NCBI RefSeq assembly: GCF_045037415.1
Contig: NZ_CP173438.1
Strand: one strand, 5' to 3'
Length of the DNA: 64,000 nt
Source of the DNA: Escherichia coli
GTDB taxonomy: Bacteria; Pseudomonadota; Gammaproteobacteria; Enterobacterales; Enterobacteriaceae
Below the pieces are notes generated by a model, which saw only the letters and a program-made list of their open reading frames with translations, did no database searches and had not been told where the DNA came from. Shown here piece after piece: positions 3,056 through 64,000 of the stretch (position 1 is its first letter; every line of letters starts with the position of its first letter). The translations under genes were made by a program, and so were the position numbers.

Positions 3056-3333
3056 ATGATAATGAATTTCAGACACAAGGGATTGCGTGACTTGTTTCTT
3101 CTCGGCAAAACCTCCGGCGTTATACCGACGCAAGTCAAACGATTACGCCACCACTCGCTGTGATTGATGCAGCATGCTGTCTTGCTGATATCGATATGCC
3201 CGGTTACCGACTACATCCGTTAAGCGGCGATCGCGATGGAATTTGGGCGATATCTGTCTCGGGCAACTGGCGAATCACATTTGAATTCGTCAATGGCGAT
3301 GCATACATACTGGATTACGAGGACTATCACTGA
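3056..3333 (+). pseudogene. HigB-like (RelE/ParE superfamily) toxin gene disrupted by a frameshift near 3158-3163
   Basis: Frame A 3056..3163 = MIMNFRHKGLRDLFLLGKTSGVIPTQVKRLRHHSL*; frame B 3160..3333 = [57 protein letters not shown]; stop overlaps the yddM ATG (tgATG); pattern matches plasmid-maintenance-killer HigB family as recalled. Confidence 0.6.
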
Positions 3334-3617
3334 TGAAAATGGCCAATCATCCCCGCCCGGGGGACATTATTCAGGAATCACTGGACGAACTTAATGTCAG
3401 CCTGCGCGAGTTTGCCAGAGCAATGGAAATTGCGCCCTCAACGGCAAGCCGATTGCTGACCGGAAAAGCAGCTTTGACGCCAGAAATGGCAATAAAACTT
3501 TCCGTGGTGATCGGCAGTTCGCCGCAAATGTGGCTGAATCTGCAAAATGCCTGGAGTCTGGCAGAGGCGGAAAAAACGGTGGATGTGTCGCGACTGCGCC
3601 GTCTGGTTACGCAATAA
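3333..3617 (+). CDS. yddM: HigA-like XRE-family HTH antitoxin / putative transcriptional regulator (94 aa)
   Basis: ORF 3333..3617; HTH motif [26 protein letters not shown]; positioned immediately 3' of the HigB-like frames. Confidence 0.88.
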
Positions 3618-20507: not shown

Positions 20508-21644
20508 TTACGAAAGCCCGCTCCCCGCAAGGACTGACGCGAGATAGTTTCTGTCCATGGCTGCTTTTCGCATCTTACGTCTTAACCCTGCCTTGAATAC
20601 CTTATCATTCGTTAAAATATTAATAGCGATGTGCCGTATCCCTGAAAATAATTCTGCGGCGTTTCCTCTTCTTATTTTGCAGTCGTCTTCATTCATTACC
20701 ACGTCCAGACGCCAGTGCAGCTTATTCTCCACGTGCCAGTGGTTTCGGATTGCTGTGGCGAACTTCTCTGCGGTTAAATCAGCAGAACTGATATAATATC
20801 TGACCGTCATTTCTGGCTCTTTCTTTTGTTCTGCTATTATGGACCGAAAGGAGACTGCCACGCATAATTTCTTCAGTCCTTTCCATTCGAACGTGAAATC
20901 AATAAGTTCATCAGGGACATCGCAAACAATATGAAGACGGATTTCTTCTCTGCCGTGACTCTTTTCACTAATGGCGTAACTGTCATGTTCTGGATTATTT
21001 AATTCTTTCAGTGGAAATTTTTCCTCAAAGGCTTTATTAAGCCGCCCCTGATTTCCTTTTACAGCGAATAAATAATCACCGCCCTGTTTTTGTATCTTCT
21101 CTGCAATATCTTTCTGGCAACCCATCGCATCAGTTGTGATGATTTTTCCTTTAATATCCAGCATGTTAAGAAGTTCAGGGATAGGTGTAATTTCATTGGA
21201 TTTCTCATCCGTCCTGATCTGTCCGATGACCAGACTGTGCATTGTTGAGAACGCACTAATGACATGAATCGCTCCCTTGCGGCGACTCTTGTCATAAGAA
21301 TGCCGGAGTGTTTTTCCATCAATTGCGATGACGTCTTTATCATCTGAAGAATGGCAGTCACGCATCCAGTTAATAAAGCACTCGTGAAATTTTGCAGGAC
21401 TGATACAGGATACAACTCTGGCAATGGTATCGTGAACAGGAATACCATTATCAAAATCACCATATTGCTTCAAAAAATCGAGATGTGTTTCCCCAAAATC
21501 CTCTATATCTTCCCAGCCTTCTGCACCCGAAATAACGGCACAAATAGTCAACAGTAGAATATCCGATAATTTATGTTCCACTTTCCAGGCTTGTCTGTAA
21601 TCGGGGATAATAGAAATATGTTCCATCAATTTTTTAAGTTCCAT
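20508..21644 (-). mobile_element. H-repeat-associated protein / ISAs1-family transposase gene (378 aa), AT-rich; element ends not defined
   Basis: ORF 20508..21644; [52 protein letters not shown]... recognised as the YdcC/YhhI/YbfD H-rpt protein family. Confidence 0.82.
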
Positions 21645-22455
21645 TTTGTTCTCCTTAATTATGTAAGGAGTATTTGATCATGTATAAGCAATAAAAAACA
21701 GCTTCAGGTAATGAGGAATATCTCAATTTTTAAACATAAAATGCGAATTATTTAGTACAAAAAAGCAGCGTTACGTGATCTTTCCCTGATATCTTAATCT
21801 GCACATAGCCATCTTAACGTTATGCCCCATACATTAGTAATGTAAATTAAGAATTCGGAATATATTAAATTCACTTCATAAATTAATATTGAGAATGATA
21901 TACACATTAATTATATTGAAGTAATGTTTTAAGAGTTGTAATGCCCATGGAACAGGACTAATTCCAGAAACTCCTGTTGGGCAATAGCGCGTTTATCACC
22001 CTACATGCCTCTTACATTTTTTAGCCTTTTCTGTAATGTCGGCAATTGGCTCATTTAATCAGCAATTGTATTGGTATTTGGCGTATTACCCCTGAAACCC
22101 ATCATGTGCTAGCCCCTCACTATTCATTGAGCCAACCACGCCAGTGTCCACTGCAACCACTGGCGTTCAGAGCGACGAACGAGTGGCGCAAGAGTAGGAC
22201 TGCAGTCAGGTATCATCAAACCAATAGTGGTTGTTTCCGTCATAATTTCATCAGGTTGCTATTTTGTCGCCAGCCGACTTTATCCCCACATATTTATAGC
22301 GGGATTATTTTGCATCGTTACATGATAAAAGGTAGGATTCTGCGCCGACAGTTATACCCATAAAGAATAATGGTGAATCTTGTCATCGCCAGGATGAATA
22401 AACATTGTTCATGGCAACTTATATGACTTTTTCATTAAAGCAATCAGGGAGAGCA

Positions 22456-25370: not shown

Positions 25371-27473
25371 ATGAAGATTTTTTCCGTCCGACAGACCGTT
25401 TTGCCCGCACTGCTTGTCCTTTCCCCCGTTGTTTTTGCCGCTGATGAACAGACCATGATTGTCAGTGCCGCACCGCAGGTGGTTTCAGAACTGGATACCC
25501 CAGCAGCCGTGAGCGTGGTGGATGGCGAGGAGATGCGCCTGGCAACACCGCGCATTAACTTGTCTGAATCACTGACCGGAGTGCCTGGTTTACAGGTACA
25601 AAACCGACAGAACTATGCGCAAGATTTACAGCTGTCGATTCGCGGATTTGGCTCCCGCTCCACTTACGGAATTCGCGGTATTCGCCTGTATGTGGACGGT
25701 ATTCCCGCTACCATGCCCGACGGACAAGGGCAGACATCTAACATCGATTTAAGCAGTGTGCAAAATGTGGAAGTGCTGCGTGGCCCCTTCTCTGCTCTGT
25801 ATGGCAACGCGTCTGGCGGTGTAATGAATGTCACCACCCAGACCGGACAACAGCCACCAACCATTGAAGCCAGTAGTTACTACGGCAGTTTTGGCAGCTG
25901 GCGCTATGGGCTGAAAGCAACGGGCGCAACGGGCGACGGCACACAACCCGGCGATGTCGATTACACCGTCGCAACCACACGTTTTACGACCCACGGCTAT
26001 CGTGACCATAGTGGCGCACAGAAAAATTTAGCCAATGCCAAACTGGGCGTACGCATTGATGACGCCAGCAAATTAAGCCTGATTTTCAATAGTGTGGATA
26101 TCAAAGCAGATGACCCAGGTGGGCTAACCGAAGCAGAATGGAAGGCGAATCCACAACAAGCGCCTCGTGCAGAACAGTACGACATGCGAAAAACCATCAA
26201 GCAAACTCAGGCTGGGTTGCGCTATGAGCGTAGCCTGAGCGCACAAGATGATATGAGTGTGATGATGTATGCCGGAGAGCGAGAAACGACCCAGTACCAG
26301 TCAATCCCCATGGCCCCGCAACTTAACCCGTCACATGCGGGCGGCGTGATTACCCTGCAACGCCATTACCAGGGGATAGACAGCCGCTGGACACACCGTG
26401 GTGAACTGGGCGTTCCAGTCACGTTCACAACCGGCCTGAACTACGAAAACATGAGTGAAAACCGCAAGGGTTACAATAACTTCCGCCTGAATCGCGGCGT
26501 GCCGGAATACGGGCAAAAAGGTGAGTTGCGCCGCGACGAACGCAATTTGATGTGGAACGTCGATCCCTATTTACAAACCCAGTGGCAACTGACCGACAAA
26601 CTTTCGCTGGATGCTGGCGTGCGCTACAGCTCCGTGTGGTTTGATTCCAACGATCATTACGTTACTCCGGGTAACGGCGATGACAGCGGTGATGCCAGTT
26701 ATCACAAATGGCTACCTGCCGGATCGTTAAAATATGCAATGACCGATGCCTGGAATGTCTATCTGGCAGCCGGGCGCGGTTTTGAAACGCCGACGATTAA
26801 TGAACTGTCTTATCGCGCTGATGGACAAAGCGGTATGAACTTTGGTTTAAAACCCTCCACCAACGATACAATTGAGATCGGCAGTAAAACGCGTATTGGT
26901 GATGGACTGCTTAGTCTCGCATTGTTCCAGACCGACACCGATGATGAAATTGTTGTCGATAGCAGTAGCGGTGGGCGTACGACTTACAAAAATGCCGGAA
27001 AGACCCGTCGTCAAGGCGCTGAACTGGCATGGGATCAACGTTTCGCGGGAGATTTTCGCGTAAAAGCGTCCTGGACCTGGCTTGATGCGACCTATCGCAG
27101 CAATGTCTGCAATGAACAGGATTGTAACGGTAACCGGATGCCAGGGATCGCCCGTAATATGGGCTTTGCGTCGATAGGTTATATACCGGAAGATGGTTGG
27201 TATGCAGGCACGGAAGCGCGTTATATGGGCGATATTATGGCAGATGATGAAAATACGGCCAAAGCGCCTTCTTATACACTCGTCGGCTTATTCACCGGGT
27301 ATAAATACAATTACCACAATTTAACCGTGGATTTATTTGGTCGTGTCGATAATTTATTCGATAAAGAATACGTTGGTTCTGTCATTGTCAATGAGTCAAA
27401 CGGGCGATATTACGAACCTGCGCCCGGACGAAATTATGGTGTCGGCATAAATATTGCGTGGCGATTTGAGTAA
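25371..27473 (+). CDS. yncD: TonB-dependent outer membrane receptor (700 aa)
   Basis: ORF 25371..27473; signal peptide, TonB-box-like N-terminus, C-terminal ...INIAWRFE ending in aromatic residue. Confidence 0.88.
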   Translation: MKIFSVRQTVLPALLVLSPVVFAADEQTMIVSAAPQVVSELDTPAAVSVVDGEEMRLATPRINLSESLTGVPGLQVQNRQNYAQDLQLSIRGFGSRSTYGIRGIRLYVDGIPATMPDGQGQTSNIDLSSVQNVEVLRGPFSALYGNASGGVMNVTTQTGQQPPTIEASSYYGSFGSWRYGLKATGATGDGTQPGDVDYTVATTRFTTHGYRDHSGAQKNLANAKLGVRIDDASKLSLIFNSVDIKADDPGGLTEAEWKANPQQAPRAEQYDMRKTIKQTQAGLRYERSLSAQDDMSVMMYAGERETTQYQSIPMAPQLNPSHAGGVITLQRHYQGIDSRWTHRGELGVPVTFTTGLNYENMSENRKGYNNFRLNRGVPEYGQKGELRRDERNLMWNVDPYLQTQWQLTDKLSLDAGVRYSSVWFDSNDHYVTPGNGDDSGDASYHKWLPAGSLKYAMTDAWNVYLAAGRGFETPTINELSYRADGQSGMNFGLKPSTNDTIEIGSKTRIGDGLLSLALFQTDTDDEIVVDSSSGGRTTYKNAGKTRRQGAELAWDQRFAGDFRVKASWTWLDATYRSNVCNEQDCNGNRMPGIARNMGFASIGYIPEDGWYAGTEARYMGDIMADDENTAKAPSYTLVGLFTGYKYNYHNLTVDLFGRVDNLFDKEYVGSVIVNESNGRYYEPAPGRNYGVGINIAWRFE

Positions 27474-27483
27474 TTATCTTTAA

Positions 27484-27515
27484 GCCCGGTATTTGCCGGG
27501 CGTATTTTATTTATC
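27484..27515 (+). terminator. Intrinsic terminator after yncD
   Basis: stem gcccgg/ccgggc with 6-nt loop followed by gtattttatttatc. Confidence 0.6.
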
Positions 27516-27747
27516 GGCTGTATTGCTGGCACAACATAGCAACGTTTTTTTGCATAGTGAGGTTTTCGACAGCCAGAGCAACTGCCATTAACTCCAGTTC
27601 GTAGCGGATCCGATTGATTTCATTTAATTGACGTTTTCCCACTTCCGGAACTGTAAATGCTTGCGCTGGTGCGACAAAGAGCGCATTTACCGAAACCAGA
27701 CGTAAGGAACCGGCGCGCCATGCGGACGCGAGGACAGAACCCAACAT
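27511..27747 (-). pseudogene. Short ORF (78 aa), possible remnant of a transcriptional regulator (mcbR-like) gene
   Basis: ORF 27511..27747 with in-frame stop two codons upstream of its start; lies where K-12 (from memory) has curA and mcbR between yncA and yncD; assignment is inference. Confidence 0.3.
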
Positions 27748-27953
27748 CGGTTACGCTGCGTTTGTTGCCCCATAATGCTCTCCTGTGCTTTTGGCATGAA
27801 TCCATCAATAGTAGCAGGCTCACAGGATTGGTTTTGTTTGCAGCCGTCACATCCCCTCTGCAACACGCAATAATTTCATAGAGGAATCCGTTGCTTCGGG
27901 CTGTTTTCGATAGTATTGATAACATCATCATCATTATTTTATCGAGGCCAGAC

Positions 27954-28472
27954 ATGTCCATCCGTTTTGCCCGCAAAGCCGACTGTGCTGCAATTGCGGA
28001 AATTTATAACCACGCCGTGTTGTATACGGCGGCTATCTGGAATGACCAAACGGTGGATGCGGATAACCGCATTGCCTGGTTTGAAGCGCGGACCATAGCA
28101 GGTTATCCGGTGCTGGTGAGTGAAGAAGATGGCGTAGTGACGGGATATGCCTCGTTTGGCGACTGGCGTAGTTTTGATGGTTTTCGCCATACCGTGGAAC
28201 ATTCGGTTTATGTCCATCCCGATCATCAGGGGAAAGGTCTGGGGCGTAAATTGTTAAGCCGATTAATTGATGAAGCGCGGGATTGCGGGAAGCATGTCAT
28301 GGTCGCCGGGATCGAATCGCAAAATCAGGCCTCGCTGCATCTGCACCAGTCGCTGGGATTTGTCGTCACCGCGCAAATGCCGCAGGTAGGCACTAAATTT
28401 GGGCGCTGGCTGGATCTGACATTTATGCAGTTGCAACTCGACGAGCGCACTGAACCGGACGCGATTGGATGA
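27954..28472 (+). CDS. mnaT: GNAT-family L-amino acid N-acyltransferase (172 aa)
   Basis: ORF 27891..28472 trimmed to ATG 27954 (MSIRFARKADCAAIAEIYNH); GNAT motif QGKGLGRKLL. Confidence 0.85.
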   Translation: MSIRFARKADCAAIAEIYNHAVLYTAAIWNDQTVDADNRIAWFEARTIAGYPVLVSEEDGVVTGYASFGDWRSFDGFRHTVEHSVYVHPDHQGKGLGRKLLSRLIDEARDCGKHVMVAGIESQNQASLHLHQSLGFVVTAQMPQVGTKFGRWLDLTFMQLQLDERTEPDAIG

Positions 28473-29798: not shown

Positions 29799-31223
29799 TT
29801 AATGTTTAACCATGACGTGGCGGACGACGGTGTAATCCTCCAGCCCATAAAGTGACATATCCTTGCCGTAACCAGAAAGTTTCTGCCCACCGTGCGGCAT
29901 TTCACTTACCAGCATGAAATGGGTATTGACCCAGGTACAACCATATTGCAGCCGCGCGCTGACGCGATGCGCCCTGCCCACATCTTTCGTCCATACCGAA
30001 GATGCAAGTCCGTACTGACTGTCATTCGCCCAGTTCACCACCTGTTCTTCGCTGTCGAAGAGCGTAACACTCACTACCGGACCAAATACCTCTTTTTGCA
30101 CGATGGCATCATCCTGTAATGCGCCAGCCAGCAGCGTCGGCGCATAGTAATAGCCATTACCCTTGCGCTTTTCACCGCCAGTGATCACTTTGATGTGCCC
30201 TGTCGCTTTCGCCTCTTCTACCGCCTTGCTGACGCGTTCGAGATGCGCCAGCGAGCTTAAAGGTCCAAGCTCCGTAGACTCGTCATCCGGCGAACCCGAT
30301 TTTAACGTTGCCACCGCAGCACCGAGTTTTTCCACCAGCGTATCGTAAATGCCTTTTTGCGCGTAGATCCGACAAGCCGCAGTACAATCCTGTCCGGCAT
30401 TGTAATAGCCAAAAGTACGTACACCTTCGACCACAGCTTCAATATCCGCATCATCAAAAACAATCACTGGCGCTTTGCCACCAAGTTCCATATGAGTACG
30501 CTTAATGGACGGCGCGGTATGGCTGATGATGTGTTCCCCAGTGGCGATAGAACCCGTCAGCGACACCATCCGCACTTTGGGATGTCCGGTCAGCGGATCG
30601 CCCACCGTTTTGCCTCTGCCAAACAGCACGTTAATCACGCCAGCCGGGAAGATATCTTTCGCCAGCTCTGCCAACTTCAACGCGGTCAGCGGGGTAATTT
30701 CTGATGGTTTAAGCACTACGCAGTTCCCTGCCGCCAGCGCCGGAGCCAGTTTCCACGCAGCCATCATCAGCGGATAATTCCACGGTGCGATAGAAGCCAC
30801 GACCCCCAACGGATCGCGACGGATCATCGAAGTATGACCTTCAAGATATTCACCTGCCGCCAGACCATTCAGGCAGCGCGCCGCACCGGCGAAAAAGCGA
30901 AAGACATCGACAATCGCCGGAATTTCATCATTGAACGCACTATGCAGCGGTTTGCCACAATTACGGGACTCCAGTTCGGCAAAAACCTGACCATTTTCTT
31001 CGATAACATCAGCCAGTTTCAGCAGGCATTCCGCACGCGCTTTTGGCGTGGTTTGCCCCCATTCGGCAAATGCTGCATCTGCCGCGCGCACAGCAGCATT
31101 GACCTGCTCTGCGGATGCCTCGGCAATCTCCAGTAAAACGTCCCCCGTTGCCGGATTATAGACAGGCTGTTTTTCCCCTTCGCCGCTAACCAGTTCTCCG
31201 TTAATCAGTAACTTATGTTGCAT
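29799..31223 (-). CDS. patD: Gamma-aminobutyraldehyde dehydrogenase (474 aa)
   Basis: ORF 29799..31223; aldehyde dehydrogenase catalytic motifs (ELGGKAP, GQDCTAA). Confidence 0.92.
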
Positions 31224-31244
31224 AGCATATTCCTGTATCAGTGG

Positions 31245-32039
31245 TTATTGACCATTGTCGCCTTCGCGGGTTAGCCACCAGGCCCCCAGGATCGGCAAGG
31301 TTGTTACCAACATAACCAGCAGTGCCACCACGTTGGTTACCGGTACATCACGCGGTCGCCCAAGCTGATTGAGCAACCACAACGGTAACGTTCGTTCATG
31401 ACCTGCCGTAAAAGTCGTCACGATGATTTCATCGAACGACAAGGCAAACGCCAGCATTCCTCCAGCCAGTAACGCCGAACTGAGATTCGGCAACACTACG
31501 TAGCGGAAGGTTTGCCAGCCATTGGCCCCAAGATCCATTGACGCCTCAACCAGACTCCACGAGGTGCGGCGAAAACGGGCGATGACATTGTTAAACACCA
31601 CCACTACGCAAAAAGTCGCATGACCGACCACGATGGTGAAAAATCCTGGCTCCAGATTGATGGTTTTAAAGGCGGTTAATAGCGCCAGACCAGTGACAAT
31701 GCCCGGCAGCGCAATGGGCAGCAACAGTAACAGCGAAATGGCGTTTTTGCCGAAAAAGTCTCGTCGCCACAGCGCGGCAGCTGCCAGCGTCCCTAACACC
31801 AGCGCGATTAATGTCGCCAGCGCCGCCACTTTAAGTGACAGTGTCACGGCATCAAGGATATCACTACGCTGTGCTGCCACGCTAAACCAGCGCAGCGTCA
31901 GGCCTTGCGGTGGAAAACTAAACGCCGCATCTTCAGTGTTAAACGCATAGGCAGCGATAATCAGGATGGGAAAATGTAGGAAAACCACGCCGCCCCAGGC
32001 CGCCAGTTTGAGGAAAAACGGTGCGCGTTCAGAGTGCAT
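31245..32039 (-). CDS. ydcV: ABC transporter permease (264 aa)
   Basis: ORF 31245..32039; membrane permease, operon with ydcSTU. Confidence 0.85.
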
Positions 32040-44159: not shown

Positions 44160-45140
44160 ATGCGTAAATATCGTCTAAGTGAAGAACAGCGAGCCTTTAG
44201 TTATCAGGAAGATGGCACTAAAAAAAGTGTGTTATTACGGCAAATTATCGCCATGAGCGATTTTAACGATGTGATAGCAGGAAGCGCTGGCGGCTGGATC
44301 GATCGCGAAACGGTGTTAGCACAGGAAGGAAATTGCTGGATTTACGACCAGAATGCTATTGCGTTCGGCGGAACGGTGATTTCCGGGAATACGCGTATCA
44401 CCGGCACCAGCGTGCTGTGGGGAGAGGTTTACGCAACGGATAATGTCTGGATCGATAATAGTGAAATCAGCCAGGGTGCATATATAAGTGACAGTGTCAC
44501 CATTAGTGACTCATTAGTTTGCGGTCAATGTAGAATATTTGGTCACGCCTTAATTGATCAACATTCTATGATCGTCGCCGCACAAGGCTTAACGCCCGAC
44601 CATCAACTCCTGCTACAAATTTATGATCGCGCAAAGGTTAGCGCCTCGCGTATTGTCCACCAGGCACAAATTTATGGCGATGCCGTCGTCCGGTATGCTT
44701 TTATTGAACATCGCGCCGAAGTTTTTGATTTTGCCAGTATTGAAGGTAATGAAGAGAACAACGTCTGGCTATGCGATTGCGCTAAAGTTTACGGTCACGC
44801 GCAGGTGAAAGCTGGCATAGAAGAAGATGCCATTCCGACGATTCATTACAGTTCACAGGTGGCGGAATATGCCATTGTGGAAGGTAATTGTGTGTTAAAA
44901 CATCATGTCTTGATTGGCGGAAATGCCGTGGTACGTGGCGGACCGATTCTGCTCGACGAGCACGTTGTAATACAAGGTGAGAGCCGTATTACAGGTGCGG
45001 TGATAATTGAAAACCATGTGGAGTTAACTGACCACGCCGTCGTTGAAGCCTTTGATGGCGACACGATTCATGTCCGTGGTCCAAAAGTCATTAACGGCGA
45101 GGAGCGCATTACGCGAACGCTGCTGGCAGGGTTATTGTGA
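44160..45140 (+). CDS. ydcK: Beta-helix repeat protein YdcK (326 aa)
   Basis: ORF 44160..45140. Confidence 0.83.
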
Positions 45141-45671
45141 ATCGATAATACGCGCGTATAAGTTCACATCATCATAGGCATCATTCAGAAACTCAGCCTG
45201 TTTCAGGCAACCTTCAAGGATAAAACCATTGCGCAACGCTACCTGGTTGCTTTGCGGATTGTCCACCCGACATTTGATCACGAAGCGTCTAAGTTCACCA
45301 GACTGAGCGTAATGATGAATCAATGCCTGCAGCGCCTGAGAAATGATCCCCTGCCCCTGATGAGGTTCGTCCAGCCAGTAGCCGATTTCAGCGGTTTTAT
45401 TCAGTGGTTCAATACGATTAAAAGAGATAACGCCGATAAGTTCATCTTCTTTGAAAATCATGAACATTTTGGCATAGCCGCGTTGATGCAACATCACATT
45501 ACCCTGCACCGTTTTTCGCGTGTCCTCTTCACTTTGAACAAACTGCGGCCAGTTTAGCGACTGCTGTAACCAGGTTTTATTTTTACAGATTAACTGATAA
45601 AGAAGTGTGACATGACTTTCCGCAACAGCATGTAATTCAAGTGATTCGCTTACTTTTATCGTTTCAGTCAT
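45132..45671 (-). CDS. rimL: Ribosomal protein L7/L12-serine N-acetyltransferase (179 aa)
   Basis: ORF 45132..45686 trimmed to ATG 45671 ([16 protein letters not shown]); GNAT motif [10 protein letters not shown]. Confidence 0.85.
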
Positions 45672-46097: not shown

Positions 46098-47753
46098 TTA
46101 ACTCATCACGCGGTCATCAACATACTGACGTTTATCCGGCGCTGGCGGGAAATACTGATATAACCATGTTTCACTGATAGCGTCGCCCTGACAACGCAGA
46201 TACATCCGCATATCGACCGGATCAGTGGAGTCCGAAGTCGGATACCAGTCAAACTGAATACGATAACCATCAATGGGTTCAATATAGAGAATTTCGATTT
46301 GCTTCGCTTCCCCACTGGAAAGCGTAATCACCGGCTCAATGCCTTTTGGCGCGGCAGCTTTCAGATCGCCACCAACGAAATCGACGGCAAAACGTCGCGC
46401 CCATTTTTCGGGATAGTGTTCACCTGGCGCCCAACCTTCCGGGAAACCGCCCATGCCGGTACGCGTCGCCATAACGCGCGCTAATGGGCAATGAACAGGC
46501 GGTTGCGCACTCCAGTACAGACGATACTGGAATGCAAACTCATCACCCGCTTTTACAGCTTTTTCTGGCTGCCAGAAGCAAACAATGTTATCCAGCGTTT
46601 CCCCCGTAGTTGGGATTTCCATCAGGCCGATGGTGCCCTTACCCCACTTGTTACGCGGTTCCACCCACAGACTTGGGCGTTTGTTATACCAGCCCATAAT
46701 GTCCTGATAATGGGAGAAATCACGATCCAGTTGCAATAAACCAAACCCTTTCGGGTTGTTGTCGGTGTAAGCATTGAACTGCAATTTTTGCGGATTGTTC
46801 AGCGGACGGCAAATCCACTCGCCGTTGCCCCGCCACATGGACAGACGATCAGAGTCATGGATTTGCGGATGAATGGTGTCGCACATCCGACGTTCATTAG
46901 TACCGCAGCTGAACATACTGGTCATCGGTGCAATGCCCAGCTGTTTAATGTCTTTGCGCGCATACAGGTGATTTTCCACATCCATAATCACCTGATTTTT
47001 CTCACAATGGATAGTGAACTTATAGGCACCAGTAATGCTGGCGCTATCGAGCAACGCATAAACGGTAAAGGTGGTTGCCCCTGGTTTTACCGTATCAAAC
47101 CAGAAGGCGGTAAAGTCGGGGAACTCTTCTTTGCTGTCGGTGTAAGTGTCGATCGCCAGGCCGCGGGCCGACAAACCGTATTGATATGTGTCATCAACGG
47201 CGCGGAAATAACTCGCGCCGAGGAATGATACTACATCACGGCGCGCCAGTTCGGGGGCTTTAAACACGCGAAAACCGGCAAAACCGAGATCGCTTTGCCC
47301 TTCTAATTGTTTGGTATCCACACCCGCATCGTTGTATTTGAACAACTCCGGGCGAAAGTGAATTTCACGCGCCAGATGTGTTGCTGGATCTACAGAAAAC
47401 ATACGAACGCGGCGACGGAATCCCATTCCCATATGGAAAAACTGAGCGTCCAGTTGACGGTTCTCAACGTTATGCCAGAGCGATTTTTCGGCGTCGTATT
47501 GAATACTGTTATAAGCCTGCGGCGTCATTGTCGCCAGAGTATCAGGTAACGGACGTGGTGCACCACGCCATGCTGTTTGCGCTAAGTCGTGCGCCATTGA
47601 CTGTAGAATGGAGAAGTCAAAACGCTGGGTTTGCCCGTCGGCAATATCAGAATCGGCCGCGAATGCCGCCTGAGAAAAAAGAGAAGCAATGCCGCTGGTA
47701 CCGCACACGGCGGCCATAGCCATTGAACCTTTAATAAATCGTCTACGATCCAT
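46098..47753 (-). CDS. mdoD: Glucans biosynthesis protein D, periplasmic, Tat-exported (551 aa)
   Basis: ORF 46098..47753; twin-arginine signal [16 protein letters not shown]... Confidence 0.9.
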
Positions 47754-47977
47754 ACCTGAAAGTGAGTCCTTCTGGTGTTGTGAATGGTCCCGCGCTGGTC
47801 ATTTTCAGCGGCAAGAAAGTGCTTATTTATGACCGCTCACTCTAGACAATATTTATTAATAATCCAATTGTTGAAATCAGAGAATATGCATAAATTGGCA
47901 TTTTTTTTATGTCGATGGGATGAGCCTGATTCGTTTGTAAAATCAGGCAAATTTTTGCAAAGGCGGATGGTCAGAAT

Positions 47978-56327: not shown

Positions 56328-59300
56328 TTAACCGCTAATCTGCTCCATCGCCTGCAAAATACGCTTATCCGAAATCGGATAAGGCGTGCCAAGTTGTTGA
56401 GCGAAGTAACTAACGCGCAGCTCTTCTATCATCCAGCGGACCTCTTTCACGTCTTCATCCTCACGACGTGCAGGCGGTAGTTTGTTGATCCATTGCTGCC
56501 ACGCCTGCTGGACGTTTTCGACTTTCAGCATCTGAGCACGGTCGCGATGTGGATCGACCGCCAGTTTTTCCAGTCGTTTTTCAATTGCCTGCAAATATCG
56601 CAGCGTGTCGCCCAGTCGTTTGAAGCCGTTACCAGTGACAAAACCGCGATACACCAGCCCGCCCATCTGCGCTTTAATGTCAGAAAGCCCCAGCGCCATG
56701 GTCATATCCACCCGCCCTTTCAGACGTTTGTTGATATTGAACACCGCAGTGAGGATTTGCTCGACCTGCTTCGCAATATCCACCACCGTGTCGTTCAGTT
56801 CAGCACGGACTTTTTCATGCAGCGCAGCAAAGCCTTCTTCCGTCCAGACCGGGCCACCATTGGCGTCGATCAGTTGATCCACACCGCAGGAGATACAGTC
56901 ATCGATCAGCTCCAGCACTTTGCCATACGGGTTAAAGTACAGCCCCAGCTTGGCTTTGTTTGGCAGCTTTTCGTGCAAGTACTTGATCGGCGATGGAATA
57001 TTTAGCAGCAGTAAACGGCGAAGACCGTTCCACATTGCCTGCTTCTGTTCCAGCGGGTTATCAAACAGTTTGATCGCTACGCTGTCACGCTCATCCACCA
57101 GCGCCGGCCAAGCCTTCACTTTGTAGTTGCCGCGCTTCTGCTCGTAGCTTTCCGGCAGTTGACCAAAACTCCAGATATGTAAACCGCTCTGCTCGATACC
57201 GTCATCCGCCACGGCAGACAGCGTTTCCTGCACTTTGCCTTTCAGGGCGTCTTTCAGATCCTGTAATGAGCGCCCTTCTTTTAGCTTCTTGTTTTTGTCA
57301 TCCACCACGCGGAAGGTGATTTTCAGGTGATCGGGCACCTGATCCCAGTGCCAGTCTTCGCGGTCAACGGTGACGCCAGTCATCCGCCGAAGCTCTCGTT
57401 CAAGGCTGTCGAGCAACGGCAATTCCAGCGGTGTGACGCGGCCTAAAAACGCTTCGGCATAGTTTGGCGCAGGTACAAAATTACGGCGTACCGGCTTCGG
57501 CAACGATTTAATCAGGGCGATGATCAGCTCACGGCGCAGGCCGGGGATCTGCCACTCAAACCCGCTCTCCTCAACCTGGTTAAGCAGCGGCAGCGGAATA
57601 TGTACGGTCACGCCGTCAGCATCTGCCCCCGGCTCAAACTGATAACTCAAACGCAGCTTGAGATTGCCCTGATGCCAGAAGTTCGGGTAATCCAGCTTGC
57701 TGATTTTTTCCGCCCCTTCTTTGATCAACATGCTCTTTTCAAAGTTGAGCAAATCAGGCGTTTCGCGGCTGACTTTTTTCCACCAACTGTCGAAATGGCG
57801 TGCAGAGATCACATCGTGACTGATGCGCTGGTCGTAGAACTCAAACAACGTTTCGTCATCCACCAGAATATCGCGGCGACGAGTTTTGTGTTCCAGCTCT
57901 TCTACTTCCGCCCGTAGTTTCAGGTTTTCGCGGAAGAATGCGTGACGCGTCTGCCAGTCACCTTCCACCAGCGCGTGGCGAATAAAGAGTTCACGACATA
58001 ACGCCGGATCGATCTGGCTGTAGTTGACCTTGCGCGCGGCAACAATCGGCAAACCATAAACAGTGACTTTTTCCGTTGCCATCACCGCGCCCTGCGCCCG
58101 TTCCCAGTGCGGTTCGCTGTAGGTGCGTTTAATCAAATGCTGAGCAACTGGCTCCACCCATTCCGGGTCGATCCGCGCAGCAATGCGCCCCCACAGGCGG
58201 CTGGTTTCTACCAGTTCCGCCACCATTACCCATTTCGGCGGCTTTTTGAATAAACCAGAACCGGGGAAGATGGAGAAACGCGCGTTACGTGCGCCGGTAT
58301 ATTCTTGTTTATCGGCATCTTTCATGCCGATATGCGAAAGCAAACCGGTCAGCAACGCAATGTGAATTTCGCGATAATCCGCCGGTTCGCTGTTAACCGG
58401 AATGCCAAGTTCTTTCACCACCTGGCGCAACTGGGTGTAGATATCCTGCCATTCGCGCACGCGCAGATAGTTGAGATAATCGGTACGACACAGGCGACGG
58501 AAGGCGTTTGAAGAAAGCGCCTTTTGCTGCTCGCCAAGATAATTCCACAGATTCACAAATGCCAGGAAGTCAGACTCTTTGTCGTGGAAGCGACGATGTT
58601 TTTCGTCAGCTGCCTGCTGTTTATCCATCGGACGCTCGCGCGGATCCTGAATGGAGAGCGCGGACGTGATAATCATCGCCTCACGCACGCAGCCATGTTT
58701 TTGCGCTTCCAGCACCATACGCGCCAGACGTGGGTCGACAGGCAACTGCGAGAGCTGACGACCGAGCGGCGTCAGTTTATAAGCACTTTGCTGTTCATCA
58801 GTGGTGATCGCGCCCAGTTCTTCGAGCAGACGCACGCCATCCTGGATATTGCGTTTATCCGGTGCTTCGACAAACGGGAATGCGGCGATATCGCCCAAGC
58901 CCAGTGCGGTCATCTGCAAAATAACCGAGGCCAGGTTGGTACGCAGAATCTCCGGATCGGTAAACTCCGGGCGCGAAAGGAAATCGTCTTCGGAATAGAG
59001 ACGAATACAGATCCCTTCGGACACACGACCACAGCGGCCTTTACGCTGATTAGCTGAAGCCTGCGAAATTGGCTCAATCGGCAAACGCTGCACTTTGGTG
59101 CGATAGCTGTAGCGGCTGATACGCGCTGTACCTGGGTCGATAACGTATTTAATACCCGGTACGGTCAGCGAGGTTTCCGCGACGTTGGTCGCCAGTACAA
59201 TGCGTCGCCCGCTGTGCGACTGGAACACGCGGTTCTGTTCGCTGTTGGAAAGCCGTGCATAAAGCGGCAAGATTTCGGTATGGCGTAAGTTCAGCTTGTT

Positions 59301-60230
59301 CAGCGCATCGGCGGTATCGCGAATTTCTCGCTCGCCGCTCATAAAGATCAGAATGTCGCCAGGGCTTTCCTGGCTCAGTTCGTCTACGGCGTCAAAAATC
59401 GCCTGCAACTGATCGCGCTCGGTATCATCGGCTTCTTCAACAATCGGGCGATAGCGCACTTCCACCGGATAGGTCCGACCGGAGACTTCGATAATCGGCG
59501 CATTATTAAAGTGGCGCGAAAAGCGTTCCGGGTCGATAGTCGCGGAAGTGATAATGATTTTTAGGTCAGGACGCCGCGGCAGCAACTCTTTCAAATAGCC
59601 GAGCAGAAAATCGATATTCAGGCTGCGTTCGTGCGCTTCGTCAATAATGATGGTGTCGTACTGCATCAGCAGGCGGTCTTGCTGGATCTCCGCCAGCAGG
59701 ATACCGTCGGTCATCAGCTTGACCATCGTGTTATCACTGACGTGATCGCTGAAACGCACTTTGTAACCGATGCAACCGCCCGGCTCCGTTTTTAGCTCTT
59801 CCGCAATACGGTTCGCCACCGTTCGCGCCGCCAGCCGACGCGGCTGGGTATGGCCGATCAGCCCTTTAATCCCGCGCCCCAGCTCCATACAGATTTTCGG
59901 TAGCTGAGTCGTTTTACCGGAACCCGTTTCCCCGGCGACGATCACCACCTGGTGGTCACGAATCGCTTCGAGAATGTCCTGCTTTTTCTGACTAACCGGC
60001 AAATTGTCCGGGTAAGTAATCTCCGGTCGTGCCGCTTCACGCAGCAGGACTTTCCCTGCCGCATGGTCAATCTCTTTCGCCATCTCCTGGAAAATGGCCT
60101 GTTGTGCATCAGGATTTTTAACCTTCTTCACACCGTGCAGACGGCGAGAAAAACGCAATCTGTCACGCAGCATCAACGAATCCAGCCGCTGCTGCAAGGC
60201 AGTAAAGGTCAATTTTTGTTGTTCTGTCAT
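56328..60230 (-). CDS. hrpA: ATP-dependent RNA helicase HrpA, DEAH-box (1300 aa)
   Basis: ORF 56328..60230; Walker A GETGSGKTTQ, DEAH box IIDEAHERS. Confidence 0.93.
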   Translation of the reverse strand: MTEQQKLTFTALQQRLDSLMLRDRLRFSRRLHGVKKVKNPDAQQAIFQEMAKEIDHAAGKVLLREAARPEITYPDNLPVSQKKQDILEAIRDHQVVIVAGETGSGKTTQLPKICMELGRGIKGLIGHTQPRRLAARTVANRIAEELKTEPGGCIGYKVRFSDHVSDNTMVKLMTDGILLAEIQQDRLLMQYDTIIIDEAHERSLNIDFLLGYLKELLPRRPDLKIIITSATIDPERFSRHFNNAPIIEVSGRTYPVEVRYRPIVEEADDTERDQLQAIFDAVDELSQESPGDILIFMSGEREIRDTADALNKLNLRHTEILPLYARLSNSEQNRVFQSHSGRRIVLATNVAETSLTVPGIKYVIDPGTARISRYSYRTKVQRLPIEPISQASANQRKGRCGRVSEGICIRLYSEDDFLSRPEFTDPEILRTNLASVILQMTALGLGDIAAFPFVEAPDKRNIQDGVRLLEELGAITTDEQQSAYKLTPLGRQLSQLPVDPRLARMVLEAQKHGCVREAMIITSALSIQDPRERPMDKQQAADEKHRRFHDKESDFLAFVNLWNYLGEQQKALSSNAFRRLCRTDYLNYLRVREWQDIYTQLRQVVKELGIPVNSEPADYREIHIALLTGLLSHIGMKDADKQEYTGARNARFSIFPGSGLFKKPPKWVMVAELVETSRLWGRIAARIDPEWVEPVAQHLIKRTYSEPHWERAQGAVMATEKVTVYGLPIVAARKVNYSQIDPALCRELFIRHALVEGDWQTRHAFFRENLKLRAEVEELEHKTRRRDILVDDETLFEFYDQRISHDVISARHFDSWWKKVSRETPDLLNFEKSMLIKEGAEKISKLDYPNFWHQGNLKLRLSYQFEPGADADGVTVHIPLPLLNQVEESGFEWQIPGLRRELIIALIKSLPKPVRRNFVPAPNYAEAFLGRVTPLELPLLDSLERELRRMTGVTVDREDWHWDQVPDHLKITFRVVDDKNKKLKEGRSLQDLKDALKGKVQETLSAVADDGIEQSGLHIWSFGQLPESYEQKRGNYKVKAWPALVDERDSVAIKLFDNPLEQKQAMWNGLRRLLLLNIPSPIKYLHEKLPNKAKLGLYFNPYGKVLELIDDCISCGVDQLIDANGGPVWTEEGFAALHEKVRAELNDTVVDIAKQVEQILTAVFNINKRLKGRVDMTMALGLSDIKAQMGGLVYRGFVTGNGFKRLGDTLRYLQAIEKRLEKLAVDPHRDRAQMLKVENVQQAWQQWINKLPPARREDEDVKEVRWMIEELRVSYFAQQLGTPYPISDKRILQAMEQISG

Positions 60231-60421
60231 AACGTTAGTGGGCAGTAGGCTGCCTGATTAATTTTCTTTTAAATGATAGATATAGAGTACCACATCGCAG
60301 CTTTCTATGCGTTGTTCAATAAATTCGAACATAGGCTTCGATTTATTGCGCTATCTCTGTGGCAGGATTGTGAATAAAGTGTCAACAAGCAACGGGGCAT
60401 TGCCCATTCAAATATCTATAA

Positions 60422-61036
<615 letters not shown>

Positions 61037-61047
61037 GATTTATGATG

Positions 61048-61077
61048 CCTCCCACGAAAGTGGGAGGTTTTTTATTT
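61048..61077 (+). terminator. Intrinsic terminator after azoR
   Basis: stem cctcccac/gtgggagg with gaaa loop followed by tttttattt. Confidence 0.7.
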
Positions 61078-61942
61078 AACCCGCCTTTTGCGCAATACTG
61101 TCCAGCGTTGCCAGCACGTCATCCGTTAGCACTAATTCATCGGACGCCATATTCTCCCGCAGATGCCCCACCGAAGAGGTGCCAGGAATCAGCAAAATAT
61201 TCGGTGAACGCTGTAACAGCCACGCCAGCGCCACCTGCATTGGTGTCGCATTAAGGCTTGTAGCAACATCGGAAAGCGTGGAGGATTGCAGCGGCGTAAA
61301 GCCCCCGAGCGGGAAGAACGGCACGTAGGCAATGCCATCACGAGCCAAAGCATCAATCATTGCGTCATCAGCACGGTGGGCAATGTTGTATTCGTTCTGC
61401 ACGCAGACGATTTCGGCAATCTTTCGCGCCTCTGCAACCTGCGTCGGTGTGACGTTACTCAGGCCAAGATGTTTTACCAGACCTTGTTGTTGCATCTCCG
61501 CCAGCACTGTCAGGCTGGCCTCAATCGATCCTTCCGCTGGGCCATGACCATCCCCCATCATAACGCGCAGGTTAACCACATCCAGTACGTCCAGGCCGAG
61601 ATTACGTAGATTATCGTGTACCGCTTTTTGCAGCTCTGCCGGAGAAAATGCGGGTAACCAGGATGCGTCCTCTCCACGCCGCGCACCAATTTTAGTGACA
61701 ATTGTCAGGTCGTCAGAGTAAGGATAAAGCGCTTCGCGGATAATCTGATTGGTGACGTGCGGACCATAAAAGTCGCTGGTATCAATATGATTGACGCCCA
61801 ATGCCAGCGCCTCGCGCAGCACGGTTATAGCGACGTGGCGATCTCTTGGGGGGCCAAAAACCCCAGGACCAGCCAGTTGCATCGCGCCATAACCAAGACG
61901 GTTAACGGATTTTGTACCGAGAGTAAATGTGTTGCTGCTCAT
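61076..61942 (-). CDS. ydbC: Aldo/keto reductase family oxidoreductase (288 aa)
   Basis: ORF 61076..61942. Confidence 0.83.
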   Translation of the reverse strand: MSSNTFTLGTKSVNRLGYGAMQLAGPGVFGPPRDRHVAITVLREALALGVNHIDTSDFYGPHVTNQIIREALYPYSDDLTIVTKIGARRGEDASWLPAFSPAELQKAVHDNLRNLGLDVLDVVNLRVMMGDGHGPAEGSIEASLTVLAEMQQQGLVKHLGLSNVTPTQVAEARKIAEIVCVQNEYNIAHRADDAMIDALARDGIAYVPFFPLGGFTPLQSSTLSDVATSLNATPMQVALAWLLQRSPNILLIPGTSSVGHLRENMASDELVLTDDVLATLDSIAQKAG

Positions 61943-62161
61943 CGCACCCTGCCCTGTAATAAAACGGATTAAGAAAAATCAGTATAGAAACGAAAAGAGA
62001 TAAATAATGCGAGGGTGTAAACAAGATTGCGGGATGAGTTGTACTGTTGCCCTGAAAGACACGAAACCCCAGGCAGGTTAAGACACGTCAAGCACCGCAT
62101 CCGGCAATAAAAAAACCGCAACCTGTATCAGCGTTGCGGTTTATGCATTACATGCTAAAAA

Positions 62162-64000
62162 TTAGAACGTTTTCTTGAAGTTTAGCATCACACCTTTATC
62201 ACTGATGCCGTCTTCTTTCCAGTGGAATGCATCTACCTGCAACGCACTTTCCTGGCTGCTGTATTTCACACCCATTGTCGCCAGGCTGTTGAAACCACCA
62301 CCATTCTGACCATCATCAATGTTGAAACGCTGGCTTCCCGCGCCCGAAACGCTCGCAGTTCGCTGGCTTTTCACATAGCTCAGGTTCGGGCCGCCTTCCA
62401 GCGTGGCGTTCGCACTCCAGCCGTCCTTACCGGCATAGTCCAGTTTCAGCCCAACAATGCTGTCCACTGCCGTTTCGCTACCGCTGTTCATGCTCAGGTT
62501 AAAGTCACCCGCATTGCGTTCCTGATAGCCACCCTCCAGTGTGTGACGCAGTTTAACCCCGGCATATGGCGTGACGTTCAGCCCTTCACGCAGCTCAAAG
62601 GTTTTCGCCCCTTCACTACGGAACTCCAGGTACTGTTGTTTCACATTAGCATCGGCTGTTTTATTGATATCGCCGTACGCTACCGAGCGGCTGCTGTCGA
62701 GCTGGTGCACATCATAACGCAGGGCGTTATTCCAGTTCATACCGTTGTCAAAGGCCATCTGGTGTTTCAGACCGAAGAACTGGCTGTAACCGCCTGTCAC
62801 TCCGTTATCGCCTGCGGTATCTGAACCATTACCCTCCAGACGCGCAATCCCGTATTCCAGACTCAGGTTCTGATGTTCAGTCAGCGTCAGAGATTTACGC
62901 AGCGCCATCATGTCGTACTGTGTGTCGTTACCCAGTTCAGCACGCGGGTCGCCTTTCGCTACCACGTTGAAGGCCAGACCGTTTGCGACTTCCGGTGCTG
63001 CATCGGACAACATGCTGAAGCGGTTACTTAACACTCGTGCTTCATTGAATACCGTTGTTGCCTGGCTGCCGCTGACCTGTTTCAGCGCACTGTTCAGTTC
63101 CGCCGTGGTGCCTACGTTCAGGCTGCTGTACAACTCGTTGTTGGTATAGCCCGCATCCAGTACCTGCGCGACGGTGTTAACAGATGAATCTGTTGCTACA
63201 TCGGTGTAGGCATTTTTAGTCATCGTGACATCAACGTTGCCGCTGGCGTCAGTAGTGCCTTGCGCGTTCCATACCACAGAGGTCGATGTAATCGTCTCTG
63301 CGTCGGTCAGATTACTGCCCTGAACGACGTTGTCGAAGGTCACGGAGGTGGAGCTGGTTCCAGCCGTAAATCCGGTGTTAACAGAAACCCCTTTCAGGCT
63401 TGCATTGTTCACTTTCAGCTTGCCGGCACTGCCGTCAGAACTGGTTCCTACAACATAACCATTCAGTTTGTTCTGGCTTCCGTCACTGGACGGGGTGCTG
63501 GCCGCAACAGAAACCGACGAGCCAGGTACATCAGGCAAAGTGTAATCAGCATAATGCACTTCGCTATTGTTACCGTTATTGCCGTTCACACCTTCAATGT
63601 TAACGCTGTCACCTTGCTTGATTAGCCCGGAACCTGTCACTCCATCGGCAATAGTCACTGTGCCGTTGTTCACGAGGTGGCCTACGGAACCCAACATGCT
63701 AAATGCAAAGGAGTTGTTGGCGTAAATGTTGATGGCGCCATTGTTCTCAATGACCGCATCAGCTGTCGTGCCGCTGTCCAGTTGCATCCCGATCATGCCC
63801 GTGTCGGTCGTGCCCGACGTTCCGAGGTTGATCGTGCCGTTGTTAACCAGTCGTGCGTTTTTATCCCCTTCCATCGCAATAGCGTTATTACCGCTAATAT
63901 TCATGGTGCCGTCATTCTGCGCAACGTAATTGCTGTGAATGAATTTCACTGCAACGCCGCTGTCTTTATCAAAATTGACGACCCCATTGCTCTGGTTCCA
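62162..64000 (-). CDS. ydbA: Autotransporter-type outer membrane protein (YdbA-like), C-terminal part; 5' end lies beyond the window
   Basis: ORF 62162..63949 stays open in frame to 64000; Gly/Thr/Asn-rich passenger repeats and C-terminal beta-domain ending ...LNFKKTF. Confidence 0.75.
   Translation of the reverse strand, partial: WNQSNGVVNFDKDSGVAVKFIHSNYVAQNDGTMNISGNNAIAMEGDKNARLVNNGTINLGTSGTTDTGMIGMQLDSGTTADAVIENNGAINIYANNSFAFSMLGSVGHLVNNGTVTIADGVTGSGLIKQGDSVNIEGVNGNNGNNSEVHYADYTLPDVPGSSVSVAASTPSSDGSQNKLNGYVVGTSSDGSAGKLKVNNASLKGVSVNTGFTAGTSSTSVTFDNVVQGSNLTDAETITSTSVVWNAQGTTDASGNVDVTMTKNAYTDVATDSSVNTVAQVLDAGYTNNELYSSLNVGTTAELNSALKQVSGSQATTVFNEARVLSNRFSMLSDAAPEVANGLAFNVVAKGDPRAELGNDTQYDMMALRKSLTLTEHQNLSLEYGIARLEGNGSDTAGDNGVTGGYSQFFGLKHQMAFDNGMNWNNALRYDVHQLDSSRSVAYGDINKTADANVKQQYLEFRSEGAKTFELREGLNVTPYAGVKLRHTLEGGYQERNAGDFNLSMNSGSETAVDSIVGLKLDYAGKDGWSANATLEGGPNLSYVKSQRTASVSGAGSQRFNIDDGQNGGGFNSLATMGVKYSSQESALQVDAFHWKEDGISDKGVMLNFKKTF

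Follow-up and report, generated by a model that had tools for sequence, protein, structure and literature searches.

The analysed window, that is, the whole stretch of 64,000 nucleotides of Escherichia coli DNA, carries the TonB-dependent receptor gene yncD (pqqU) and mnaT (yncA) directly adjacent to each other and separated by a gap of 480 bp, as the first-pass annotation of this DNA had described (Table 1). Their K-12 counterparts are 2116 bp apart and enclose mcbR and curA, which agrees with the K-12 gene order given in that annotation. Over its full length the window differs from E. coli SK1144 (NZ_AP018784.2) at 7 of 64,000 positions. A sensitive BLASTN comparison of the region with K-12 (locus L001) and four other intact alleles identified three collinear blocks that are separated by gaps of 306 and 1332-1333 bp. 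Within the 480 bp, mcbR accounts for 195 nt and curA for 68 nt; both are about 90-97% identical to their K-12 counterparts, whose order and orientation they share. An Rfam search of positions 27300-28100 (E <= 1) matched no family.

Table 1. Features between yncD and mnaT. Positions refer to the window; L001 is the K-12 locus.
Feature	Position	Strand	Description
yncD (pqqU), end	27473		
Gap between yncD and mnaT	27474..27953		480 bp
mnaT (yncA), start	27954		ATG
Collinear block 1	27374-27556		L001 3033-3213
Collinear block 2	27557-27705		L001 3520-3668, 93.3% identity
Collinear block 3	27706-28053		L001 5001-5348
yncD-mcbR spacer	left end of gap		37 bp, contains the hairpin
GC-rich hairpin	27484..27501		between the convergent yncD/pqqU and former mcbR stops; 7-bp stem with 6 GC pairs, then T-rich tail on plus strand
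mcbR 3' remnant	27511..27556	-	last 46 nt: final base of codon 207, codons 208-221, stop
Deletion joint A	27556/27557		306 bp gone: mcbR nt 315-620, end of codon 105 to codon 207
mcbR middle remnant	27557..27705	-	codons 56-104 and two bases of codon 105
Deletion joint B	27705/27706		1332-1333 bp gone
curA 5' stub	27706..27773	-	68 nt: ATG (27773-27771), 22 codons and 2 nt; L001 5001-5068
curA-mnaT divergent intergenic region	27774..27953		180 bp, intact; collinear with K-12, 96.8%
curA Shine-Dalgarno AGGAG	27781-27785	-	kept
Promoter-like site towards curA	27960-27933	-	10/12 matches
Promoter-like site towards mnaT	27846-27874	+	9/12 matches
78-aa ORF	27511..27747	-	
118-aa ORF	27620..27976	-	TTG start; open frame over intergenic region and both remnants
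28-codon ORF	curA stub plus 27687-27705	-	stop 27687-27689
PGAP pseudogene 2	27705-27773		'hypothetical protein, incomplete, missing C-terminus'

The hairpin at the left end of the gap was found in a scan for terminator-like structures. Its stem is unchanged in an alignment with the five intact alleles, and positions 27474-27510 do not contain a single variable site among eight genomes carrying the short junction. The structure is probably the shared terminator of yncD/pqqU and the former mcbR, kept whole. Next to it, the 3' remnant of mcbR encodes the C-terminal peptide MQKNVAMLCQQYSR, which is identical to McbR residues 208-221 at 9 of 14 positions (BLASTP). The middle remnant encodes the C-terminal 19 residues of the winged-helix domain, followed by the linker and approximately 22 residues from the start of the FCD domain, and its translation corresponds to McbR except for S65F and D83N (48/50 identical over residues 56-105). 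On the other side of joint B, the stub of curA is identical to CurA at 20 of 23 residues (BLASTP, E = 6e-14). Read together with the adjoining positions it forms a 28-codon ORF, MGQQTQRNRCWVLSSRPHGAPVPYVWFR, that enters the mcbR remnant out of frame and soon reaches a stop codon.

Specifically, the sequence missing at joint A amounts to 102 codons, so that the reading frame is preserved across the joint, and it contains nearly the whole FCD domain. Joint B lacks mcbR codons 1-55, the 197 bp between mcbR and curA in which the mcbR promoter region lies, and nt 69-1038 of curA, which correspond to 94% of that gene (323/345 codons). Comparison with the five intact alleles revealed 0 bp of microhomology at either joint and a search for direct repeats did not find any; deletion by slipped-strand pairing or short homology is therefore not supported.

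To assess the variation of the remnants, we compared the window with seven other carriers of the junction (n=8). The coding remnants contained 9 variable sites in 263 nt, or 3.4 per 100 nt, compared to 0.96 in mnaT, 0.36 in ydcZ and 0.56 (1/180) in the curA-mnaT intergenic region. In the mcbR-derived part four of six variable sites were non-synonymous, and the residue changes encountered in the coding remnants were M/L, F/I, A/V, V/I, S/A and V/G. Since the remnant is about three times as variable as mnaT and its changes are mostly non-synonymous, it is drifting in the manner of an unconstrained sequence. The characteristics of a pseudogene or deletion remnant are thus found together at this locus, namely homology to a known gene, the loss of start codon, promoter and domains, and a diversity of 3.4 vs 0.96. 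The 149-nt middle fragment carries eight lineage-specific substitutions with respect to all intact alleles, of which six fall on third codon positions. This suggests that much of its divergence arose while mcbR was still functional, and owing to this bias the age of the deletions relative to the split of the lineage is not fixed. In the same sample of carriers, the last 800 bp of yncD/pqqU (26674-27473) showed 2.5 variable sites per 100 nt, which could result from recombination or from diversifying selection on the receptor.

The distribution of the junction was determined in a set of 5426 complete E. coli genomes. The whole junction was found in 1042 of them (about a fifth) and intact curA-mcbR in 4357. 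A 60-mer spanning joint A and a 60-mer spanning joint B each occurred in 1041/5426 genomes; these equal counts are no strict proof that the genomes are the same ones, but the whole-junction query was covered in one place in 1042 genomes. No genomes with a single joint were apparent from the 60-mer searches of the 5426 genomes. One oddly scoring match (H90) was considered as a different arrangement and proved to be the identical scar. Among the carriers are CFT073, Nissle 1917, NRG857C, ST95-32 and the ST131 strain EC958; these strains, like the lineages ST131, ST73 and ST95 in the clade, belong to phylogroup B2. Identities over the 149-nt middle fragment of mcbR were sharply bimodal, all carriers showing 95% or more identity with the window and all intact alleles 94.6% or less, and the collection did not contain any intact allele closer than this best value that could serve as a proxy for the ancestral state. 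Over the mnaT part, the best intact-allele genome among the matches listed reached 97.7% identity and most carriers at least 99%. Both joints were present together in every carrier inspected, and both deletions would therefore have occurred before the carrier clade diversified. The scar thus seems to be clade-wide, fixed and of single origin, being neither the norm of the species nor a peculiarity of one strain, and the sequences of its two joints provide a clean presence/absence marker of the carrier clade.

Taken together, the gap is almost certainly an inert gene-loss scar left by two old deletions in mcbR-curA. According to this reading, the ancestor would have had the gene order yncD - mcbR - curA - mnaT. 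One deletion without junction homology would have removed 306 bp from mcbR in frame and thereby nearly all of the FCD ligand/dimerisation domain, and the other, equally without junction homology, would have taken 1332 bp with the mcbR promoter region, 94% of curA and the first 55 codons of mcbR, where most of the winged-helix DNA-binding domain is encoded. The products would be two mcbR fragments in frame with each other, the 68-nt stub of curA, the yncD hairpin and the curA-mnaT control region, the last of which is intact and still needed by mnaT. Such a scar would yield neither a functional regulator nor a reductase, and its coding remnants would be left to drift; from the kept curA promoter and ribosome-binding site at most a junk peptide of 28 residues could be made. 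The first-pass annotation had proposed a deletion that left a fragment of a regulator, and this is borne out by the three collinear blocks, by the similarity of the 78-aa ORF to McbR (88% identity to residues 52-108) and by the stub of curA. The two observations it had named beforehand as speaking against this proposal were not made: the 78-aa translation is similar to a GntR-family regulator, and the junction is the minority state, with 1042 genomes against 4357 intact ones. To this proposal the analysis adds that there are two deletions, that a stub of curA survives as well, and that the 78-aa ORF is a chimera of three parts instead of a simply truncated gene.

The loss may have had regulatory and metabolic consequences. 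McbR was described by Zhang et al. (2008) as the repressor of mcbA/ybiM that controls colanic acid and biofilm formation, and it has also been implicated in biofilm formation and in the response to H2O2 in APEC. Of the 5426 genomes, 5420 contain mcbA together with its upstream region, which means that carriers hold the target without its repressor, i.e. an orphaned target. We infer from the gene content that carriers lack both McbR repression of mcbA and CurA activity. This would apply to the probiotic strain Nissle 1917, to the uropathogenic reference CFT073 and to the pandemic ST131, all without McbR and without the curcumin reductase CurA, and results obtained in K-12 on the control of biofilm and colanic acid by McbR or on the conversion of curcumin would accordingly not be transferable to these strains.

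It might be argued that the loss itself was adaptive, in that inactivation of McbR and/or CurA was selected in an extraintestinal B2 ancestor as a patho- or niche-adaptive change. The scar is fixed in a large and successful clade, with ST131, ST73 and ST95 among its members, although the same fixation is equally expected from one neutral event in the ancestor. The retention of mcbA would allow loss of the repressor to alter mcbA expression, and the role of McbR in APEC points in the same direction. IS elements have furthermore interrupted mcbR independently in unrelated strains, but two such cases in 5426 genomes do not represent a notable recurrence. On balance we consider an adaptive loss unlikely; such a loss bears on the reason for the scar and not on its nature, and agrees with the reading as a gene-loss scar. 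There is, in addition, a slim chance that the locus reflects either a selected rewiring in the B2 ancestor, with McbR and CurA lost and mcbA kept, or a curA promoter that now expresses an active chimeric peptide. If true, the rewiring would derepress mcbA constitutively and change colanic acid and biofilm behaviour.

Outside the deletion clade, mcbR is broken by an IS5-like ISKpn26 in strain A10 (L017 2649-4513) and by IS1 in strain 162.2. These independent interruptions in unrelated strains are consistent with mcbR being dispensable.

The open reading frames across the gap raise the question of a product. The 78-aa ORF on the minus strand had been noted in the first-pass annotation with its frame closed two codons before the start, and this is indeed what precedes it (stop-Pro-Met). 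Its first 14 residues are read from the curA stub in an alternative frame and are followed by McbR residues 56-105 and 207-221; as the length of deletion A is divisible by three, the ORF runs on into the true C-terminus of McbR. In BLASTP searches it was identical to K-12 McbR at 50 of 57 residues (88%, residues 52-108; E = 1e-31). A length of 78 codons alone is within what chance would give, and the similarity to McbR is beyond it. Pfam did not detect any domain in the 78-aa ORF (E <= 1) or in the 118-aa ORF, which is uninformative given the shortness of the fragment, and we therefore relied on pairwise BLASTP and NCBIfam for the ORFs. Against the McbR equivalog NF008504 the 78-aa ORF scored 86.1 bits (E = 2.7e-24), covering profile positions 52-110 of 221 only, which is below the cut-off of 225 bits; K-12 McbR scores 453 bits. 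Intact McbR, for which a structure has been solved (PDB 4P9F), contains a GntR domain (PF00392) at residues 13-74 and an FCD domain (PF07729) at residues 84-209. From the GntR winged helix-turn-helix only residues 56-74 survive in the ORF, and the FCD domain is reduced to residues 84-105 and 207-209. Its descent from mcbR by orthology is indicated by the collinear blocks, by the position between yncD and curA/mnaT and by the BLASTP match. Sequence comparison thus presents the 78-aa ORF as a chance chimera of three pieces and not as a gene.

The 118-aa ORF that overlaps it, also reported in the first-pass annotation and found again here, has no Pfam or NCBIfam match and is absent from the PGAP annotation in all genomes inspected. 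Its frame contains stop codons in three of five strains with intact alleles (L004, L005 and L006), and the ORF is therefore spurious. Neither ORF should be annotated as a gene.

One may nevertheless ask whether the 78-aa chimera, or the 28-aa CurA' peptide made from the curA promoter and ribosome-binding site, has become a new functional small protein, for example as a piece of the McbR dimer interface. All eight carriers have the 78-aa frame open, with zero indels. Given so few substitutions, however, this is expected by chance and is no sign of selection. The curA Shine-Dalgarno sequence, ATG and promoter-like site are kept, which would serve the shorter peptide; the 78-aa ORF, on the other hand, has no visible Shine-Dalgarno sequence in the 12 nt preceding its ATG and takes its first 14 residues from a frame not used by curA. 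Residues 1-55 and 106-206 of McbR are gone, leaving neither a complete winged helix nor a complete FCD domain, and no McbR partner remains in carriers with which a fragment could interact. Variation among carriers is raised and mostly non-synonymous, and the 28-aa peptide varies as well, with SS, SL or AS at positions 14-15. We therefore regard a functional small protein as very improbable. Finally, the alternative offered in the first-pass annotation, that both genes had always been absent from the lineage and the short junction is ancestral, has nothing in its favour beyond the short gap itself and is virtually untenable, since non-acquisition cannot leave gene fragments. The pieces of mcbR (195 nt) and curA (68 nt) are arranged here as in K-12, and these remnants already settle the polarity of the change as a loss.

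Compared to McbR/YncC of K-12, a GntR-family regulator of the FadR/FCD subfamily, the gene-loss scar in the window represents orthologous DNA at the orthologous position with 48/50 identical residues over 56-105, but has lost the promoter, the start codon and the codons for residues 1-55 and 106-206. Neither GntR nor FCD is detectable in it, and functionally it is a pseudogene fragment rather than a member of the family. In comparison with CurA/YncB, an NADPH-dependent curcumin/dihydrocurcumin reductase of the MDR type, the locus keeps the promoter region, the Shine-Dalgarno sequence, the ATG and 22 codons, but not the part of ADH_N_2 past residue 23 nor any of the Rossmann domain. Intact CurA carries PF16884 (ADH_N_2) at residues 9-116 and PF00107 at residues 161-297, and of this combination of ADH_N_2 with a zinc-independent, NADPH-binding Rossmann domain only codons 1-23 are left.

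In every carrier inspected PGAP, the source of the RefSeq annotation, marks two incomplete pseudogenes, the first a GntR family regulator with both termini missing and the second corresponding to the curA stub (Table 1); the annotation of the scar is the same in SK1144, CFT073, NRG857C, ST95-32, EC958 and others. The scar is ordinary in this respect and already annotated as pseudogene fragments. It is of the same kind as other lineage-fixed E. coli scars that PGAP annotates as 'incomplete; partial in the middle of a contig', from which it differs in minor peculiarities, namely two separate blunt joints for which no intermediates are seen, and three pieces that happen to be fused into a single ORF. 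A literature search did not find a paper on the mcbR-curA deletion as such, the candidate PMC10881479 containing neither term.

Several further features were observed elsewhere in the window. A fragment of trg, encoding a methyl-accepting chemotaxis protein, lies at 44818-45261 (-) with its N-terminus missing; it is annotated as a pseudogene in SK1144 and in the same way in EC958, and represents another deletion scar in the window that is shared by the lineage. A fragment of the hicB antitoxin gene at 31196-31432 (-) likewise lacks the N-terminus, without an annotated hicA beside it, and EC958 is alike. At 3056-3617 (+) a RelE/ParE-family toxin gene is annotated as frameshifted and adjoins the intact HigA-family antitoxin gene yddM. 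The region 20508-22455 begins with 'ydcC' (20508-21644), the transposase of the ISAs1-like ISEc1, followed by approximately 810 bp without an annotated feature up to ansP; K-12 presumably has more genes in this neighbourhood. At the position of gapC, a pseudogene in K-12, a type I glyceraldehyde-3-phosphate dehydrogenase gene ('gap', 46882-47883, +) is annotated as intact. The 3' part of a BigA/YdbA-type autotransporter-like gene of approximately 8.6 kb (record 2556481-2565084) occupies 56481-64000 (-) and crosses the end of the window.
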